Both the position numbers and the translations under genes were made by a program. A model generated the notes under the pieces. That model saw only the letters and a program-made list of their open reading frames with translations. It did no database searches and had not been told where the DNA came from. A stretch of DNA of 64,000 bases from an uncultured Candidatus Saccharibacteria bacterium (GTDB lineage Bacteria; Patescibacteriota; Minisyncoccia; Phycocordibacterales; UBA918): assembly GCA_964402035.1 (NCBI GenBank), contig CAYOAM010000001.1:24261-88260 (forward strand), in the 5' to 3' direction. Shown in pieces: positions 3,077-47,293 of the stretch (position 1 is the first letter of the stretch; each line of letters starts with the position of its first letter).

Positions 3077-3658
3077 ATGTATATCATCTCTGGATTAGGA
3101 AATATGGGTAAGGAATATGTTGGCACGCGTCACAATATTGGTCGCACTATGGTGATGTCGTGGGTCATTGCACAGCACGGCGAGCTCGTCGCCGCAAAAC
3201 GATATTCTGGTTTGCTGTGGGAAGGTAGTGTCGGTGGAGAAACGGTGCGTGCGTTCGTTCCTGAATGCTATATGAATCAATCAGGAGGTCCTATTGGGAA
3301 AATTGTGACGAGTAAAAAGCAAGCAGCTACGCTCATGGTGGTGCATGATGATCTTGATCTACCGTTGGGTACGGTACGTGTCGCATTTGCACGTGGGGCA
3401 GGCGGTCATAATGGCGTGGCTTCAATTATAAAGTCTCTCAAGACTGATGCGTTTGTACGTATTCGCGTCGGTATTAGTCCTTCGGTGCGGGGGGTAATCA
3501 AAAAGCCAGTAGATGCAGATCACGTGCATGATTGGGTATTGGGCATGTTCTCAAAAAAAGAGCAGGGGATCCTCAAAGATGTTGAAAAAAAAGTGCACGC
3601 GTCACTTTCGCACATCGTCGAGAAGGGGGTAGAGTCTGCGATGAATACATATAATTAA
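3077..3658 (+). CDS. pth: peptidyl-tRNA hydrolase
   Basis: MYIISGLGNMGKEYVGTRHNIGRTM matches the Pth N-terminal signature (GLGNPG.EY..TRHN.G). The ORF is open from 3038, but the ATG at 3077 fits the family start. Confidence 0.85.
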   Translation: MYIISGLGNMGKEYVGTRHNIGRTMVMSWVIAQHGELVAAKRYSGLLWEGSVGGETVRAFVPECYMNQSGGPIGKIVTSKKQAATLMVVHDDLDLPLGTVRVAFARGAGGHNGVASIIKSLKTDAFVRIRVGISPSVRGVIKKPVDADHVHDWVLGMFSKKEQGILKDVEKKVHASLSHIVEKGVESAMNTYN

Positions 3659-6757: not shown

Positions 6758-9241
6758 ATGGCAAAAAAGGATAAAAACTTTGAAGATAAGGGTGTGCCAG
6801 CTGCTTTTGTGGAAACAAAAATGGTGGCACAAAATATTACCGACGAAATGCGTACGTCGTACCTTGACTACGCGATGTCGGTTATTACCCAGCGTGCGCT
6901 TCCTGATGTGCGTGATGGCTTAAAGCCGGTGCATCGTCGCATTCTCTATTCTATGCGCCTCAATGGCCTCACCGCCACTGCACGTTTTAAAAAGTCTGCA
7001 ACGGTTGTTGGAGATGTGCTCGGTAGCTTTCACCCACATGGTGACGTTGCCGTGTATGATGCAATGGTCAAACTTGCGCAAGATTTTACGACGCGCTACC
7101 CACTCATTTTAGGACAAGGAAACTTTGGATCAATCGATGGAGACTCGCCTGCTGCGTACCGCTATACGGAAGCAAAAATGTCACGACTTGCCGAAGAACT
7201 GCTTCGTGATCTTGAAAAAGAGACGGTCAACTGGCGCCCAAACTTTGACGGTACGAAGCGCGAGCCAGAAGTATTGCCCGCTGGTATTCCAAACCTGCTC
7301 CTTACGGGAACGTTGGGTATTGCGGTGGGTATGGCGACCAATATTCCGCCACACAACTTACGCGAGGTGGCGGATGCTACTGCACATCTTATTGATAATC
7401 CAAAAGCAACGACTGAAGATTTGTTGCAATTTGTGAAAGGTCCCGACTTTCCGATGGGAGGTATTGCTTTCAATCAAAAAGATATTGCACATGCGTACGC
7501 AAACGGTCGTGGGGGAGTTGTCGTGCGCGGTGAAGCGGAGATTGTGGAGGATAAAAAGGGAGCGTTTTCGATCATCATCACCTCGATTCCGTATCGTGTG
7601 AACAAGGCCGATATGCTTATGAAGATTGCAGACCTCGTGCGTGAAAAACGTATTGAGGGTATTCGAGATCTGCGTGATGAATCCACACGTGACATACGTG
7701 TGGTTGTTGAACTCAAAAATGGAGCGCAACCGCAGACAGTGCTAAATAAGCTCTATAAACACACGCAGCTCGAAGAAGCCTTTCATTACAACATGGTGGC
7801 ACTTGTCGACGGTATTCCTCAGACATTGTCTCTCAAGTCAATTTTGCAGTGCTACATTGCGCACCGTCAGGAAGTCATCCGTCGTCGCACCGAATTTGAT
7901 CTTCGGAAAGCAAAAGAGCGTGAGCATATTTTGCTCGGGCTCAAAAAAGCCCTCGATCATATCGATGAGATCATCAAGCTTATCCGTGCAGCAAAAGACG
8001 TACCGGCGGCACACGCAGCATTGATGCAGCGCTTCAAGTTTTCTGAACTTCAAGCGACCGCTATTCTTGATATGCGTTTGCAGAAGCTTGCCGGTCTTGA
8101 GCGCAAGAAGATTGAGGAAGAACTCAAAGAAGTGCAGGCACTGATCGAAGAGTTGCTTTCTATATTGAAAAGTGAAAAAAAGATGCTCACTATTATCAAA
8201 AAAGACCTGCTCGATATCGCCGAAAAATTTGGCGATGATCGCCGCACCAAGATTGTGAAAGGTGGGGTAAAAATGCTTAATCCTGAGGATTTGGTACCCG
8301 ACGAAGAGAGCGTGTTGGTGCTCACACAGGGCGGGTATGTAAAGCGCACCAATCCGTCTGAGTATCGTGCACAGCGTCGCGGTGGCGTGGGGGTTGTTGA
8401 TCTCAACACCAAGGAAGAGGATTTTGTCACCATGCTCCTCACGACTTCAACGCACAGTAATCTCCTGTTCTTTACGAATCGTGGAAAAGTATTTCAGACG
8501 AAGATGTACGAAATCCCTGAAGCAAAGCGTGCGACAAAAGGGAAGTCGATTATGAATTTCCTCTCGCTGACCGAAGCGGATCAAGTGACTTCGGTGAAGG
8601 CGGTACCAAAAGCACAAAATCATGCTGGACTCTCACTCATGATGGTCACGAGACAAGGTATTGCAAAAAAAGTTGCCGCGGAAAGTTTTAAAGATGTGCG
8701 CCAGAGTGGTCTTATTGCCATCTCACTACATGCCGACGATGCACTTATTGCGACACAGTTTGTAGAAAAGGGTGATGAGATGATGCTTGTGACATCGGGA
8801 GGACAGTCTATTCGTTTTAAAGAATCTGATATTCGTGAAATGGGCCGCGGCGCTGCGGGTGTTCGTGCGGTAAAGCTTGGAAAAAATGACTATGTGGTGG
8901 AGGCGCATATTGTGAAGAAGGACGAGAAGGATGCCACGATGCTGGTCGTTTCAGAAAATGGATACGGCAAGCGAACGCCACTCAAGGAATACAAAGTGCA
9001 AAAGCGCAGTGGTTCTGGTATCAAGACTGCAAAAGTGACGTCAAAGACGGGCAAGATTGTGGGGGGTCAGGTCTTGCATGCCGAAGATGTAGCGGAAGGG
9101 GAACTTGTGGTCATGAGCAAGAAAGGGCAGGTCATTCGACTTGCGCTCAAAGAAATCCCATCACTCGGCAGACAAACTCAGGGGGTACGGATTATGAAAT
9201 TGCGACCAGGGGACTCTATTGCTTCTGTGGTGTACTTCTAA
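6758..9241 (+). CDS. gyrA: DNA gyrase subunit A
   Basis: 827 aa. [30 protein letters not shown], and the active-site AAYRYTE tyrosine region. Confidence 0.95.
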
Positions 9242-17440: not shown

Positions 17441-18229
17441 ATGATATCTGCGCGTATACGTGAGGTCGCGATGCGTCGCCTCGCCAGTTTCACACTTCCA
17501 TTTTCTCGTTCGTCTCGCTTACTGCATCCGTCACTCGACCGTGCATACAGGGAGTATCTTGGAAAACTTCAAATACTGCCACGGGGTCCAGTGTGGCCGA
17601 TCGTCGTTTTCATGATTGGACTCCCTGGTTCAAAACGTGTCATTGTTGCTGATGAAATTGCGAAAGCTGCAGGTTACACATTTATCGTTGCAAATACGAT
17701 ACGTGACATTCTCTTGAGTGCTAAAGAAAGTGAGTCCCATCTCGATGAGCTGCTTTGGAGGGCAATAGAGCATGTGCTTGCTTCAGGAGGCAATGTCGTT
17801 GTTGATATGGACGCAATAGCAACATCGAGACGTGCACGTGCCTGGGCGGTGGCGAAAAAGAATGGTGCGCATGTCGAGTTTGTCCGGACGCATTGTAGCT
17901 TTTTTCAGATGATGCTTAATCTGCAGCAAGCCGCAACGGACAAGAATGTACATCCGGCATGGCGTGCAGAAGTGCTCGCGCATGGCATGGAGGATACAGA
18001 CGAAAGAAGGGCTGCAGCTGCACAAGCTCGAGTGGTACAAACGGCACATCTGCATTATCGTACAAGTAAACCAGATGGCGTTCTCGACGAAGTGCGTCCG
18101 TTGCCATTTGAACTACTGATGGATGTCCTACGGGTGACCCAACGAGCGCTGGAGATGCCGCGAAAAGAATCGCACAAGCATTGGCCGAGTTCAAAGAGAC
18201 ATAGCAATATGTCGCTTTTTTTATTTTAA
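17441..18229 (+). CDS. hypothetical protein with a degenerate P-loop (IGLPGSKR)
   Basis: 262 aa with a possible P-loop kinase-like fold. The start may be the M at 17471. The gene ends in a repeat-rich region. Confidence 0.35.
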   Translation: MISARIREVAMRRLASFTLPFSRSSRLLHPSLDRAYREYLGKLQILPRGPVWPIVVFMIGLPGSKRVIVADEIAKAAGYTFIVANTIRDILLSAKESESHLDELLWRAIEHVLASGGNVVVDMDAIATSRRARAWAVAKKNGAHVEFVRTHCSFFQMMLNLQQAATDKNVHPAWRAEVLAHGMEDTDERRAAAAQARVVQTAHLHYRTSKPDGVLDEVRPLPFELLMDVLRVTQRALEMPRKESHKHWPSSKRHSNMSLFLF

Positions 18230-18267
18230 AAACTCACAGGCGGTATGTTTCTGTCTGTCTTTGTGTA

Positions 18268-19404
18268 GTCACAAGTTACTAACTATTTTGTTCCAAGTAT
18301 TCACAAAATACTAAGTACTTCTGACCACGACGCGATGTTTTTCTTTTAGAAAAACATCGTTGTGCCGCCCACAAAAGCATAGACCGAGAAAAGCAACCAT
18401 AAGTTGCTTTTCTCAAGGGCAGGTGTTTATTTCTGGTGGTCACGAATAAATTCACTAACGTGAATTTTTCGCTACCCGAGAAAAGCAACTCAATGTTGCT
18501 TTTCTCTGTGGTTTTAGCCTTGAGCAAAGCTCAAACAAAAAAATAGCTCTGCTTCCCACAAAAGAATGAACATCTGCCCCGGGGCAGGTGTTCATTAATT
18601 GTGGTCACTAGTCACTAACCAAATTACTTATTGCATAGTAATTTGCTAAGTGCTCTTGACCACGTCTCGCCCGTTGCCAAGGCAACATGGCTCCGACTCC
18701 CACAAAAGCATAAAACCTGCCGAAGGGCAGGTCTTTATGTCTTTTGTGGGCGAGAGAGGACTTGAACCTCCACGGGTTGCCCCACTTGGTCCTAAGCCAA
18801 GCGTGTATACCATTTCACCACTCGCCCAGAGTGTGCGCTACACTATAACGTATTTTTAATTTCTGTGCATTTTTGTCTTTCCTTTGAACATATGGCTGTG
18901 CGGTGGACTTGTCATCAAGAATTACTAAGTAGAATGCTACGCCTTCATACTAAGTATTCGCGATCCCGCCTCGCAGTATTTTTGCTCTTTGGCAAAAATA
19001 CATAGCTGCGGCTCGGACTCATAAGAAAAACACGGCGCAGGCAAAAACCATGTCATCACAAGTAAATTTACTGACGTAAATTTCTTGCGATCCCGGCTCG
19101 CTGTATTTTGCTTTAGGCAAAATACATAGCTCCGCCTCGGACACGTCATCACGAATAAATTCACGGACGTGAATTTTTCGCGATCCCGACTCAGCATCGC
19201 TTCGCGATATGCTTCCGTCGCGGACACGTTTACAAAAACAGCACGCAGGTGCTGTTTTTTCTGTCATCACAAATATTTTTCCTGACGGAAAAATTTCGCG
19301 ATCCCCGCTCGCGGTTTCTGCCTCTGCTTCGCAGAACAGAAACATCGCTGCGCGTCGGACAAATGCACAAAATCTCCCGCAGGGGAGATTTTGTGCATTT
19401 GTCC
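18268..19404. repeat. array of modular hairpin repeats: at least 7 copies of the family-A nested palindrome, 'ttttgc...gcaaaa' small hairpins, 'cacaaaag...cttttgtg' long hairpins, and 4 direct ~100-130 bp units sharing CATAGCTCCGCCTCGGACACGTCATCAC and TTTCGCGATCCCGNCTCGC
   Basis: Read from the sequence. The variable palindromic cores aaatttac-tgac-gtaaattt (19064-19083), aaattcac-ggac-gtgaattt (19157-19176), tttttcc-tgac-ggaaaaa (19274-19293) and aaattcac-taac-gtgaattt (18448-18467) differ by compensatory changes. Confidence 0.8.
18747..18827 (-). tRNA. tRNA-Leu (anticodon UAG)
   Basis: Manual cloverleaf. Acceptor GGGCGAG/CTCGCCC, anticodon stem CTTGG/CCAAG with loop CTTAGGA, long variable arm, T-loop TTCAAGT, discriminator A. 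Confidence 0.75.
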
Positions 19405-19474
19405 GCCCACCAGGGCTCGAACCTGGGACCTTATCCTTAAGAGGGATCTGCTCTACCAACTGAGCTATGAGCGG
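19402..19474 (-). tRNA. tRNA-Lys (anticodon CUU)
   Basis: Manual cloverleaf. Acceptor CCGCTCA/TGGGCGG, D-arm GCTCAGTTGGTAGAGC, anticodon loop CTCTTAA, T-arm CCAGGTTCGAGCCCTGG. One G-A mismatch at 27:43. Confidence 0.7.
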
Positions 19475-19597
19475 ATATGTAATTGTGGCAACGGTGTTCG
19501 GGCATTATCGTACCTTATATTCCTGCATTTCTCAACACTATTTTTTGAATGCTATACTAATCTTGATGTTATTGATATCAGCATTTGCAATATACAT

Positions 19598-19966
19598 ATG
19601 TCAGACATAGATCATGCGTTGAGAGAAGTTGAAGAAAAGATTAGAAAGGACAACGACCTATTGCATAAAGCTCAGGCAGAAGCGGAGAAGACGACCAAAG
19701 ACATAACTGCAAAGGAGCTTCAGTTGAGTAAAGATCTATCTGAACTTGAGAGAGCTCACAAGAAAGCGGTCGATGTTATAAATGCCAAGTTTGAGACTGA
19801 ACTCAGGGCTCTCCGGGCAGAAAAGAAGAAAGATGAAGAAGCAATTTCTACCGCAAAAGGGGACTTCATACGCCATGGTAAAAAATTGGAGGAGCTAAAG
19901 CGTGCGATAGAAAAGGCGCAACATGATTCTCAAGGAAAAAGTGCTTCTAGCTCTAGGAGTTGGTAG
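19598..19966 (+). CDS. hypothetical coiled-coil protein (122 aa)
   Basis: MSDIDHALREVEEKIRKDNDLLHKAQAEAEK... charged heptad-like sequence. The ORF-track 5' extension from 19391 overlaps tRNA-Lys and is rejected. Confidence 0.4.
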   Translation: MSDIDHALREVEEKIRKDNDLLHKAQAEAEKTTKDITAKELQLSKDLSELERAHKKAVDVINAKFETELRALRAEKKKDEEAISTAKGDFIRHGKKLEELKRAIEKAQHDSQGKSASSSRSW

Positions 19967-20258: not shown

Positions 20259-20342
20259 GCCGGGGTGGTGAAATTGGTAGACACGCGACACTTAAAATGT
20301 CGTGAGCGCAAGCTCATATGGGTTCGATTCCCATCCCTGGCA
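20259..20342 (+). tRNA. tRNA-Leu (anticodon UAA)
   Basis: Manual cloverleaf. Acceptor GCCGGGG/CCCTGGC, anticodon stem CGACA/TGTCG with loop CTTAAAA, long variable arm, T-arm ATGGGTTCGATTCCCAT. Confidence 0.75.
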
Positions 20343-20463
20343 CATGAATGAAGTGAATGGCGGGTAGTAGTGTGCAGGGCACACTACTACGGGAATCGAA
20401 GAGGTTGTTGACGATTTCGACCATCGGGAGAAATTGTCCTACAACCTGTACTGAACATGTAAT

Positions 20464-20486
20464 GTTCGATTCCTATCCCTGGCACA
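20464..20486 (+). repeat. 23-nt direct repeat of the tRNA-Leu(UAA) 3' end (22/23 identical), 121 bp downstream of the intact gene
   Basis: gttcgattcctatccctggcaca versus the tRNA's gttcgattcccatccctggcaca. An att-like duplication. Confidence 0.7.
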
Positions 20487-20581
20487 AAATAAGCGTAGTG
20501 TTTTTTGGAGAGATATACCGATATGTAGGTGCCACCATCTATGAGTGTTTGTCTATAGAAAGCCATGCTAGACTTTAGGAT

Positions 20582-21337: not shown

Positions 21338-21444
21338 TTCAGAGCTATACATATTTGAGGCCTGGGCGAGATCGTCCTGACGGATCACAATATTTTTGCT
21401 ATATTTCATACCAAAATACATAACGACCTCCTTTTGTTTTTAGA

Positions 21445-21586
21445 GTCACGAATCACTAAGCAAAATACTTTGTATTTATGCTAAGTGTTCTTGACCACGC
21501 CTCGTTTTTTGCTCCGCCTGAGAGCGAAGCAAAATGACTGCGGCCCCTCCGTGTATGAAAAAACAGCATGTAAATGCTGTTTTTTC
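21445..21586. repeat. tRNA-flank hairpin module: family-A element, then a ttttgc hairpin, then gaaaaaacagcat-gtaa-atgctgttttttc
   Basis: Same three-part architecture as 18601-18750 and 37801-37954, immediately downstream (minus strand) of tRNA-Cys. Confidence 0.7.
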
Positions 21587-21592
21587 TCACGG

Positions 21593-21664
21593 AGGCCTGG
21601 GCGAGAATCGAACTCGCGTGTATCGGTTTTGCAAACCGCTGTGTTACCACTTCACCACCAGGCC
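21593..21664 (-). tRNA. tRNA-Cys (anticodon GCA)
   Basis: Manual cloverleaf. Acceptor GGCCTGG/CCAGGCC, anticodon loop TTGCAAA, T-arm GCGAGTTCGATTCTCGC, discriminator U as expected for Cys. Confidence 0.7.
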
Positions 21665-37800: not shown

Positions 37801-37954
37801 GTGGTCACGAATCACTTAGTAGAATTTTCGAACTCATGTTCAAAAATTCTACTAAGTGTTCTCGACCCCGGCTCGAAGGTTTTTGCTTTGAAGAGCAAAA
37901 ATATTTCTGTGCCTCGCACAAAAGCAAAAAACCTGCCGCAGGGCAGGTTCCGTG
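37801..37954. repeat. tRNA-flank hairpin module (family-A element, then ttttgc hairpin, then gcacaaaag...cttttgtgc hairpin)
   Basis: Same three-part architecture as downstream of tRNA-Leu(UAG) and tRNA-Cys. Here it is attached only to a tRNA-Tyr fragment. Confidence 0.7.
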
Positions 37955-37971
37955 TCTTTTGTGCGCCGGGT
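37952..37971 (-). repeat. displaced 20-nt copy of the tRNA-Tyr 3' end (putative att-site half)
   Basis: gcgccgggtaggatttgaa is identical to 43970-43989 (the 3' end of intact tRNA-Tyr), in direct orientation, 6.0 kb away. Confidence 0.75.
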
Positions 37972-38175
37972 AGGATTTGAAGTTTACTACTTCAGTACAC
38001 CTCTGAATAGCACCCCATGCTATTCAGCTACTTTTCTGCGCAAAGCTTGAAAAGGTAGCTCGCAAGGTTTTCAAATCCATGCTCCCAACACAAAAGACGT
38101 CCACAAGGGACGCCTTTTCTATTGGGTGCTCCGAACTGGAGGCGATTCGGATTCTATGCCTATAGTCTTCTAAAC

Positions 38176-43924: not shown

Positions 43925-43969
43925 GCCTCTACGAAAATAACCCCATCAACTGGGGTTATTTTCAAAAAG
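43925..43969 (-). terminator. hairpin following tRNA-Tyr (gaaaataacccc-atcaact-ggggttattttc)
   Basis: It differs from the cacaaaag-type hairpin that follows other tRNAs. It lies inside the putative island end. Confidence 0.5.
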
Positions 43970-44053
43970 TGCGCCGGGTAGGATTTGAACCTACGAAGCC
44001 CTGAGGGCGACAGATTTACAGTCTGTTGCGATTGACCACTCCGCCACCGACGC
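43970..44053 (-). tRNA. tRNA-Tyr (anticodon GUA), type II with a long variable arm
   Basis: Manual cloverleaf. Acceptor GCGTCGG/CCGGCGC (one G-U pair), anticodon stem ACAGA/TCTGT with loop CTGTAAA, variable arm hairpin GCCC-TCA-GGGC, T-arm GTAGGTTCAAATCCTAC. Confidence 0.75.
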
Positions 44054-46550: not shown

Positions 46551-46622
46551 GGGCGATTAGTTTAGTGGTAGAACATAGGTCTCCAAAACCTACGGTGGGG
46601 GTTCGATTCCCTCATCGCCCGC
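46551..46622 (+). tRNA. tRNA-Trp (anticodon CCA)
   Basis: Manual cloverleaf. Acceptor GGGCGAT/ATCGCCC, anticodon stem TAGGT/ACCTA with loop CTCCAAA, T-loop TTCGATT, discriminator G. Confidence 0.75.
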
Positions 46623-46753
46623 AGCGAACGAAGTGAGCGAGGACGATGAGGGAATCGAACCGACAGTGCGGGGCACTGTCGTGCCGAGGGACGAGGTCGA
46701 TTCAAAAATATCATCACCCGTGTCAGGTGTCAGCATGTTAAAATGTATTCATT

Positions 46754-47293
46754 ATGACGATGATTAAACAAATCAGGAATCTCGCATTTATAGATGGACA
46801 GAATTTGTATATTGGCACTGCCAAACGAAGTATTGATCCGTGGAAGATTGATCTTGTTCGGTTTCGTGTATATCTAGAACAAAAATATCACGTGAGTCAT
46901 GCATACTATTTTTTAGGATATGTACAGGAGACAAATCAAGAGTTGTATGAAGAAATACAGCAGGCGGGTTTTATTCTCATATTTCGCGAACACAATCCGG
47001 CAATGATTGGAAAGAAAAAGGGGAATGTTGATTCGGATATCATTTTTCATATTATGAAGAGGATGTACAAAAAGGAAAATTTTGAAAAAATTGTGCTTGT
47101 GTCGGGAGATGGGGACTATAAACTCCTTGTTGATTTTTTGATCGAGGAAAATAGGTTTGCAAAGGTTTTGTTTCCTGATCGCGGCAGAGCATCTTCTCTA
47201 TATAAGAAAATTGGAGCTACGTATTTTGATGCTTTGGACGCTGGAGGGGTTCGGAGTAAAATCGAGAGAGGAGAAATGAAAAAGGCTCCTTAG
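46754..47293 (+). CDS. NYN/LabA-like (PIN-fold) domain protein
   Basis: AFIDGQNLY ... IVLVSGDGDYKLLVDFL matches the NYN/LabA signature. Confidence 0.6.
   Translation: MTMIKQIRNLAFIDGQNLYIGTAKRSIDPWKIDLVRFRVYLEQKYHVSHAYYFLGYVQETNQELYEEIQQAGFILIFREHNPAMIGKKKGNVDSDIIFHIMKRMYKKENFEKIVLVSGDGDYKLLVDFLIEENRFAKVLFPDRGRASSLYKKIGATYFDALDAGGVRSKIERGEMKKAP

Follow-up and report, generated by a model that had tools for sequence, protein, structure and literature searches.

Small RNAs and repeats that lie beside tRNA genes or imitate tRNA ends have been described in several systems, and they form the background for a family of repeated units in a 64,000-nucleotide (nt) stretch of DNA from an uncultured Candidatus Saccharibacteria bacterium (contig CAYOAM010000001.1, positions 24,261 to 88,260; the whole stretch is called the window below). 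Most of the units lie between positions 18268 and 19404 of the window. From the sequences and their predicted folds they are read here, with a probability of about 0.5, as a conserved structured RNA module in the 3' trailers and spacers of the tRNA and transfer-messenger RNA (tmRNA) transcription units of Patescibacteria. In the following, X stands for the 3' end of the upstream tRNA and anti-X for its complement; a unit opens with anti-X and closes with X.

By analogy, the theta ribozymes beside phage tRNA genes are the nearest functional analogue of the unit. They are minimal ribozymes of the hepatitis delta virus (HDV) type that adjoin the tRNA genes of gut Caudoviricetes phages and have been shown to cleave, and like the unit they are small structured RNAs lying downstream of, and co-oriented with, tRNA genes without an encoded CCA (PMC10879173). 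They lie within +/-5 nt of the tRNA, whereas a 40-nt hairpin intervenes before the unit; they form the HDV double pseudoknot, whereas the unit is a three-way junction without a match to the HDV family; and they are phage-borne with demonstrated cleavage, whereas the unit belongs to Patescibacteria chromosomes and any cleavage by it is hypothetical.

The t-elements of plant mitochondria, mascRNA, and dicistronic genes joining tRNAs to small nucleolar RNAs (snoRNAs) or small RNAs (sRNAs) are non-tRNA RNAs that are co-transcribed with tRNAs or mimic them, with ends set by tRNA-end enzymes. The closing helix of the unit likewise copies the tRNA acceptor end, and in a second subclass the whole acceptor/T stem, but the unit has no cloverleaf, no T-loop and no match to the tRNA model. 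Since the mimic helix ranges from 3 to about 20 bp, an enzyme that measures it is unlikely.

Integron attC sites and the attP(+) site of CTX phage resemble the unit in keeping structure over sequence, in being strand-specific, and in having an inverse-core/core pair (here anti-X and X) that closes a variable branched structure in tandem arrays. The attC site carries R'' (RYYYAAC) and R' (GTTRRRY) boxes, with intI and attI adjacent. The integron core is thus the fixed GTTRRRY, whereas X is the 3' end of whichever tRNA lies upstream, and the unit has no intI, attI or cassette open reading frame (ORF) while showing conserved junctions, G.U wobble and tandem G.A. An integron attC or cassette array was rejected on two counts: the unit ends (GUS...SAC) vary with the tRNA, and there is no integrase in the window.

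T-box leaders and the P15 loop of RNase P share with the unit a short strand that complements the 3' terminus of the tRNA and changes with tRNA identity. They pair with N73-CCA of the mature tRNA in trans, whereas the unit complements N70-C74 in cis from a downstream position and has no Rfam match. The tyrT-linked repeats of E. coli, with their RtT RNA, are also repeats downstream of a tRNA that hold a piece of its 3' end, RtT RNA being released from the tRNA transcript. That case is confined to one enterobacterial operon, whereas the unit is spread across a phylum; the two are unrelated in sequence and fold, and the unit has no match to RF00391.

Spread, fold and covariation of the unit

With a degenerate pattern derived from the copies in the window, 185,579 species genomes (one genome per species) were scanned, and at least 119 loci matched. 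Among the matches listed, essentially all belonged to Patescibacteria, with Saccharibacteria, Paceibacterota and Nomura-, Adler-, Kaiser-, Yonath- and Lloydbacteria represented, and the core sequence of the unit was common to the Saccharibacteria and Paceibacterota/Parcubacteria lineages. A covariance model run on these loci recovered 143 units in 100 loci; the unit counts below rest on this set. Genomes carry several copies each.

Rfam 15 at gathering score found only tRNAs and no family for the unit, its hammerhead, HDV-like, twister, pistol, hatchet, RtT, Y RNA and group II D5/D6 families included, and matches at E up to 10 on 18100-19600 were chance-level microRNA (miRNA) or sRNA hits, all far below gathering scores. 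A looser pattern run on viral contigs gave 12 matches, all without the hairpins and therefore chance matches, and BLAST against phage and plasmid collections gave tRNA matches only, or nothing. No description of the element was found in the literature on structured RNAs of Patescibacteria (also called the Candidate Phyla Radiation, CPR), on motifs downstream of tRNAs, on theta ribozymes or on RNA sequencing of TM7x. It appears to be an undescribed tRNA-coupled structured module of many Patescibacteria lineages.

The unit is a three-way junction of 70-125 nt, with the RNA-sense consensus GUGCGAGGCGCAGYGAUG-(variable hairpin)-CCRCGAGCCGGGGUCGCGAR-(variable hairpin)-AYUYGUGACCAC. P1 has 3 bp (GUS/SAC) and leads through J1/2 (NNA) into P2 (GNC/GNC), which carries an internal loop (G-S-A/G-A, conserved) followed by a variable hairpin. 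J2/3 is GGG, and the lower stem of P3 is conserved in sequence (GUCGNGAR/YUYGUGAC), with an invariant G.U and a bulged A before a variable hairpin of a few recurrent types; 0 nt separate P3 from the 3' strand of P1. Many unpaired and junction nucleotides are near-invariant and are set between freely varying stems. The initial annotation of this span, made by a model from the letters of the window, had described modular hairpins with outer arms enclosing an inner palindrome, and the structured nature of the repeats is borne out, but a single hairpin is replaced by the junction. Its outer arms correspond to P3, its inner palindromes with mirrored changes to distal P3, its ttttgc...gcaaaa hairpins to distal P2 and its cacaaaag...cttttgtg hairpins to terminator-like spacer hairpins.

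Window units A-I fold far better than shuffled sequence (z = -2.9 to -9.1). Paired cells amount to 96.4% in the hand-curated seed alignment of 35 sequences and to 94.3% in 140 distinct sequences; double-sided changes occur at 28 of 29 pairs, and the observed values were reached by 0 of 500 shuffles. When the 3' partners were slid by 1-3 columns, pairing fell to 33-51%. The 140-sequence alignment was fitted to the covariance model and is hence favoured by it, and the MAFFT seed alignment gives the same pattern. The top column pairs by mutual information are all predicted pairs, and the same analysis gave no extra covarying (tertiary) pairs. Covariation is thus very strong across 140 distinct homologues and clearly beyond chance, in agreement with the earlier proposal that selection acts on structure over sequence.

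The fold also indicates the strand. Of the 140 sequences, 131 have G.U at one P3 pair and 63 have it at a second position, which is strand evidence because the opposite strand would give A.C. In addition, the minus strand is more stable than the plus strand by 1.5-11.5 kcal/mol in all nine window units.

Two further relationships were considered and rejected. Kissing of the CUGC spacer loop with the GCAG internal loop has no compensatory CUCC loops, although the CUGC loop is somewhat commoner with NCAG than with GGAG internal loops; a relationship between P2 and the tRNA 5' end was judged a coincidence of one construct.

These properties bear on repetitive extragenic palindromic (REP) sequences and bacterial interspersed mosaic elements (BIMEs) handled by a REP-associated tyrosine transposase (RAYT) or an IS200-like transposase, which had been put forward as candidates. 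The units do share with such repeats a hairpin-rich, intergenic and repeated nature, a frequent location by terminators and a GT-type tetranucleotide at the start. REPs and BIMEs are short, simple, species-specific palindromes with a 5' GTAG-type tetranucleotide, and BIMEs occur in both orientations. In contrast, the units face one way with respect to their tRNA, as do all nine window copies and essentially all of the 143 elsewhere, fold as a three-way junction and not as a simple palindrome, and share a core between Saccharibacteria and Paceibacterota lineages, and no Y1 transposase was found among the 40 ORFs of the window; this origin is considered very improbable. Likewise, a CRISPR array, in which unique spacers of similar length part identical short repeats and cas genes are usually present, was rejected, as it had been before, since the units are long, diverged, internally structured and abutting, with no cas domains in the scanned ORFs. 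A family of small structured RNAs, which had also been suggested, is probably the best reading.

Position behind tRNA genes and complementarity to their 3' ends

A co-oriented tRNA lies at most 600 nt upstream of 117 of the 143 units, and an opposite-strand tRNA lies at most 100 nt upstream of one. The gap between the tRNA and the first unit is sharply peaked, at 40 nt in 24 cases (the mode) and 39-44 nt in 57, and consists of a hairpin with a U tract. Terminator-like hairpins end 3-12 nt upstream of 117 of 147 units (80%), and another follows downstream in 54%. The spacer hairpins have the G+C-rich stem-loop and U tract of an intrinsic terminator, termination itself being predicted, and they are perfect Watson-Crick palindromes, with 0 G.U in 274 pairs. 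The CUGC loop is far commoner before units than in other terminator-like hairpins of the same loci: it occurs in 59 of roughly 190 terminator-like hairpins (loci L014-L132 and the window), 37 of them directly upstream of a unit, and also in the small hairpin of the second subclass.

Arrays are usually short (104 singles, 16 doubles, 1 triple and 1 quadruple in the 100 loci), so that the 4 + 3 units of the window are the extreme; junctions of 2-3 nt between units occur, and units of different hairpin subtypes are mixed within an array. One unit lies behind a tmRNA gene, and several 'orphan' units follow apparent tRNA-Glu 3' ends missed by ARAGORN. The seven tRNA genes of the window and those of loci L014-L113 encode the discriminator and a single C, followed by A-rich sequence and not by CCA; A stands at +1 in 82-84%, and unit 3' ends share this A-rich context. 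The order tRNA-Lys(CTT)-unit-tRNA-Leu(TAG) recurs in nine other loci among the matches listed, several of them near clpB as in the window, indicating that the window copy is probably orthologous. The block of tRNA-Lys, spacer and unit is 77-83% identical between genomes whose clpB DNA is 65-70% identical.

The ends of the unit follow the tRNA upstream. Unit nt 1-5 are the Watson-Crick complement of tRNA N70-N72, the discriminator and the encoded C74, as seen from the pairs of tRNA 3' end and unit 5' end for Ala (UCCAC/GUGGA), Glu (GUCAC/GUGAC), Arg (GGCAC/GUGCC), Ile (CGUAC/GUACG), Lys (CGCAC/GUGCG or CGGAC/GUCCG), Leu (CCCAC/GUGGG) and Cys (CCUCC/GGAGG). Exactly 5 bp between unit nt 1-5 and tRNA N74-N70 are possible in 56 of 73 tRNA-adjacent cases. 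At unit positions 3-5 the mean number of Watson-Crick matches is 2.68 of 3, against 1.43 +/- 0.09 when units are shuffled among tRNAs. Where the tRNA has a G.U pair (Ala G3.U70, Glu G2.U71) the unit has A, indicating a complement of the tRNA 3' strand and not a copy of its 5' strand. At the other end, the last 3 nt of the unit equal tRNA N72-N74 in 61 of 73 cases, against 38 expected.

Units farther along arrays still match the tRNA of their array (positions 4-5, 1.68 of 2 against 0.94 shuffled), and the match is kept in window units B-D and F-G. At the Lys-Leu loci the tRNA end and anti-X vary jointly (CGCAC/GUGCG, CGGAC/GUCCG, UGCAC/GUGCA). The general architecture is X, hairpin, anti-X, core and X. 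Neither the strand, the tRNA-Leu inside the span, the position at about 40 nt, the spread over lineages nor the complementarity of the 5' end to the tRNA had been recognised in the initial annotation. Complementarity to the 3' end of the unit's own tRNA points to a role in the handling of the tRNA transcript, or to a mobile module that targets tRNA genes.

Subclass 2 units start with UCGAA/UUGAA and end with GACCGA. Their 5' flank is antisense to 12-20 nt of the 3' part of the tRNA or tmRNA, and their 3' flank repeats 15-22 nt of that part from the T-loop on, so that the closing helix mimics the whole acceptor/T stem.

Two plus-strand regions of the window hold related copies. At 46551-46700 a tRNA-Trp is followed by 18 nt (46644-46661) that are perfectly antisense to its T-loop, T-stem and acceptor 3' strand, then by a hairpin and, at 46697, an incomplete copy of the T-loop (TCGATTC); the next gene (46754-47293) encodes an NYN-domain protein, a putative RNase. 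At 20259-20490 a tRNA-Leu(TAA) is followed by an antisense T-loop copy (GGGAATCGAA, 20391-20400) and by a near-exact direct copy of its last ~22 nt at 20464-20485, which has the X/anti-X/X logic without a recognisable core.

Copying of tRNA ends also raises the idea of decayed tRNA pseudogenes, or of a functionless tandem duplication of terminators. The units do adjoin tRNAs and copy 3 to 22 nt of their 3' ends. Nevertheless, ARAGORN and the Rfam tRNA model (RF00005) did not match the units, with 0 overlaps in the 100 loci or the window, the conserved core has no tRNA counterpart, and the strength of covariation together with conservation across Patescibacteria lineages excludes neutral decay, so that this explanation has next to no probability.

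Proposed readings: trailer module, mobile element or processing RNA

Where a unit lies in a tRNA-tRNA spacer, 13-33 nt are left before the next tRNA. With 14 nt in L042 and 13 nt in L064, transcription must cross both the hairpin and the unit, and the module would be co-transcribed with its tRNA whenever the hairpin is read through. The conservation of the Lys block together with the joint variation of tRNA end, anti-X and X speaks for a maintained cis function on the tRNA transcript.

From this position and complementarity we infer a switch. Anti-X would pair with the 3' end of its own tRNA in an open state, in which the spacer hairpin would be lengthened to about 23 bp; alternatively, it would pair with the unit's own 3' copy, P1 closing and stacking on P3 in a closed three-way junction, and the module would toggle between the two. 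The most likely role would be that of a signal acting in cis, through which tRNA precursors would be processed at their 3' ends, separated or insulated, and in which each boundary between SAC and AA would be presented in a defined RNA context to a conserved partner, which may be a protein, an RNase or the RNA itself. The Patescibacteria account for a large part of bacterial diversity; their genomes are tiny, and their RNA biology is poorly understood. If the RNA reading is true, the module would add a new component to the expression of tRNA genes, be it in processing, insulation or quality control.

Several points weigh against a trailer module. A terminator-like hairpin precedes 80% of the units, and efficient termination there would leave little unit RNA. 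Anti-X can pair with N70-N72 only in competition with the acceptor stem of the tRNA, and the subclass 2 match to 12-20 nt of the tRNA 3' part looks harmful and not helpful for maturation. If the two wobble positions are set aside, G.U outnumbers A.C by a modest margin (50 against 28), and the absence of G.U from the spacer palindromes fits a palindrome at the DNA level equally with a bidirectional terminator. In addition, the module behaves as a clean insertion flanked by a direct repeat (L027 against L026 and L042), L075 has an intact unit behind a tRNA antisense strand, and the 3' end of tRNA-Tyr occurs as an orphan copy 6 kb from the gene.

The last of these points lead to the main rival, a miniature, non-autonomous, site-specific mobile element made of hairpin, anti-X, core and X, which is possible but unlikely; it continues the integration-site modules suggested in the initial annotation. 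It would have integrated immediately 3' of tRNA and tmRNA genes or in their T-loop region, with a host or helper recombinase or HUH enzyme recognising the core folded as single-stranded DNA, the anti-X:X duplex mimicking the chromosomal target as in integron attC and CTX-phage attP(+), and arrays growing by accretion. The 3' ends and T-loops of tRNA and tmRNA genes are classical integrase targets. The module lies between direct repeats of the tRNA or tmRNA 3' end, which are 3 nt long in the common form and 15-22 nt long in subclass 2, where they begin in the T-loop (a classical integrase sublocation), and both gene types are among the targets. In the tRNA-Arg(GCG)-tRNA-Arg(CCG) pair presence and absence are cleanly polymorphic: the hairpin and unit are absent in L027, with a 32-nt spacer, and present in L026 and L042, with 14-33 nt remaining past the unit. 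The different hairpin subtypes within arrays, the perfect spacer palindromes, the unit behind an antisense tRNA and the X-bearing module 6 kb from tRNA-Tyr are also in its favour, and it survives the covariation and strand specificity because a recombination site folded as single-stranded DNA would give both.

In contrast, there is no integrase, transposase or reverse transcriptase among the 40 ORFs of the window, and the window holds no near-identical copies. The conserved G.U wobble, the tandem G.A loop and the conservation of the junction nucleotides are features typical of RNA, the integron R''/R' consensus is missing from the core, and the unit at the Lys/Leu position is syntenic in nine other loci with co-varying anti-X, which fits long constrained vertical descent. 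Patescibacteria are reported to lack group II introns (PMC13011429), which takes away both this class of helper and the route by terminator-targeting IIC introns. If the mobile reading is true, it would be a new kind of tRNA-targeting module that chooses its site by base-pairing.

A doubtful third explanation is a new guide-bearing processing RNA, self-cleaving or directed by a ribonucleoprotein. Either by itself or together with a protein confined to these bacteria, its core would cut, at N73/C74, the strand to which anti-X is paired, so that a closed P1 would give a cut at the unit's own 3' end and anti-X on the tRNA a cut at the tRNA 3' end. The near-invariant unpaired and junction nucleotides between freely varying stems would suit such a core, as would the guide that matches the tRNA, the identical 'substrate' trinucleotide at the unit's own 3' end, the arrays with 2-3-nt junctions and the tRNA genes without encoded CCA. 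A precedent exists in the tRNA-adjacent HDV-like theta ribozymes, which are proposed to trim tRNA 3' trailers (PMC10879173). However, the unit has no likeness to any known ribozyme class in Rfam, pairing with N70-N72 needs an opened acceptor stem, and the long guides of subclass 2 would unfold the tRNA. If this explanation is true, the RNA would in effect take the place of tRNA 3'-trailer nucleases, in an RNA-programmed form, in reduced Patescibacteria genomes, maturing or releasing tRNA and tmRNA 3' ends and cutting tandem units apart.

Hammerhead, HDV-like, twister, pistol, C/D-box/k-turn and group II domain V folds were fitted by hand without success. The hammerhead core is CUGANGA ... GAAA ... 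UH around three stems; UGAUGA occurs only in window units A-D, the family consensus at this position is GUGACCAC, and the unit junctions are NNA, GGG and 0 nt. Suggestive motifs (UGAUGA, GUGCG...AC) were dismissed because they are not conserved in the family or are explained by the tRNA pairing.

The element is a strong and easily recognised genome marker of Patescibacteria. With a covariance model, exact coordinates and clear predictions available, the trailer-module and mobile-element readings are directly testable.

Layout of the window and further observations

The window is a bacterial chromosome fragment and part of a 453-kb metagenome contig; its genes include gyrA, a short infB, clpB, topA, pth, dprA, serS, miaA, parB and several PF18895 pilins. 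The closest relatives among the fetched loci are metagenome-assembled genomes of Saccharibacteria/Patescibacteria, with clpB DNA identity to the window of 65-70%. The span 18268-19404 reads on the minus strand and starts directly 3' of tRNA-Lys(CTT). The initial annotation had counted at least seven family members in the span and nine in all; seven units (A-G) were found between 18265 and 19360 and two more (H and I) elsewhere, all nine on the minus strand, by a covariance model drawn largely from other genomes (35 hand-checked sequences, three of them window units; E = 4e-17 to 5e-4). The repeats thus form a tandem array as described, but not an uninterrupted one: tRNA-Leu(TAG) splits it into four units behind tRNA-Lys and three behind tRNA-Leu. 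The features are collected in Table 1.

Table 1. Coordinates of the tRNA genes, spacer hairpins and units in the window (scores from cmsearch with the covariance model; z from comparison with shuffled sequence)
Feature	Position	Strand	Bits	E	Fold z	Description
tRNA-Lys(CTT)	19402-19474	-				A73 at 19402, encoded C74 at 19401; heads first array (ARAGORN, Rfam); 3' end CGGAC, complement of the GUCCG opening units A-D
Spacer hairpin 1	19361-19400	-				40-nt perfect palindrome, CUGC loop, U tract; terminator look; fold -27.8 kcal/mol; in the full-construct fold, stem extendable by 5 bp (tRNA-Lys 3' end with unit A 5' end)
Unit A	19263-19360	-	83.8	9e-17	-4.7	P1 GUC/GAC, P2 and hairpin, P3 and hairpin
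Spacer hairpin 2	19226-19262	-				Between units A and B; A tract, ACAGCAC-CUGC-GUGCUGU, U tract (sequence)
Unit B	19145-19225	-	78.9	1e-15	-3.7	
Unit C	19052-19142	-	85.6	4e-17	-6.6	Begins 2 nt past the end of unit B
Unit D	18911-19018	-	55.7	2e-10		P3 of the long ACUUAGU type
tRNA-Leu(TAG)	18747-18827	-				Inside the span; heads second array (ARAGORN, Rfam); 3' end CCCAC, complement of the GUGGG opening units E-G
Spacer hairpin after tRNA-Leu	18704-18745	-				42 nt, after C74 at 18746; CACAAAAG...CUUUUGUG, loop CUUC, U tract
Unit E	18601-18703	-	43.3	1e-7	-5.6	
Terminator-like hairpin	18560-18600					Directly upstream of unit F
Unit F	18436-18559	-	31.5	5e-5	-7.3	Diverged, extra hairpin
Hairpins	18373-18435					Directly upstream of unit G
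Unit G	18265-18372	-	27	5e-4	-6.7	Diverged
tRNA-Cys module	21442-21664	-				Outside the span; tRNA-Cys 21593-21664, 40-nt spacer hairpin, unit H 21442-21550; unit H starts GGAGG, complement of the tRNA-Cys 3' end CCUCC, and its P1 3' strand CUC copies C72-U73-C74
tRNA-Tyr-end module	37801-37981	-				Outside the span; exact 21-nt copy of the tRNA-Tyr 3' end 37961-37981, CUGC-loop spacer hairpin, unit I 37801-37919; tRNA-Tyr gene 6 kb away at 43969-44053

Units A-G measure 81-124 nt, have diverged from each other, possess internal structure and directly adjoin one another or a hairpin, being separated by terminator-like hairpins or by 2 nt only. There are no near-identical pairs among the window copies, and Tandem Repeats Finder reported nothing in the array region because the copies are too diverged. 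The rare derived states GGGAUC...GAUGAC are common to units A-D and to the second unit of the orthologous array in L087, and with these shared states the seven copies fit a local tandem expansion of modules behind tRNA-Lys and tRNA-Leu. A sigma-70-like, promoter-like site at 18869-18842, upstream of tRNA-Leu(TAG), could be the tRNA's own promoter.

In the region of the tRNA-Tyr end copy (37961-38075), the antisense of the copy (GGATTTGAA) lies upstream of it, as do some 95 nt of other hairpins, and unit I matches the copy. In locus L075 (6359-6453, minus strand) an intact unit with a CUGC hairpin lies downstream of the antisense strand of a tRNA-Lys, the sole case among the 143 units.

A conserved sequence of ~90 nt (..GGGTCGATTAGA..CTTACAGGGCAATGAAT..CTCGATTAGGCTCAC) lies upstream of the hairpin and unit in three genomes (L045 ~3296-3420, L102 ~2589-2720, L074 ~7134-7260). 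Rfam gave no identification for the conserved sequence upstream of units in L102 and L069, and it may be another stable RNA of these bacteria.

A third unit subclass has an extra hairpin in J1/2 (GUGAG-hairpin-UCGCAAG...) and was seen in L085 (2018-2895), L077 (458-529), L079 (3940-4011) and L106 (4155-4225). In L106 a tRNA 5' half (GCGCGGTTAGCTCAGTTGGTAGAG) is fused directly upstream of the unit of this subclass.

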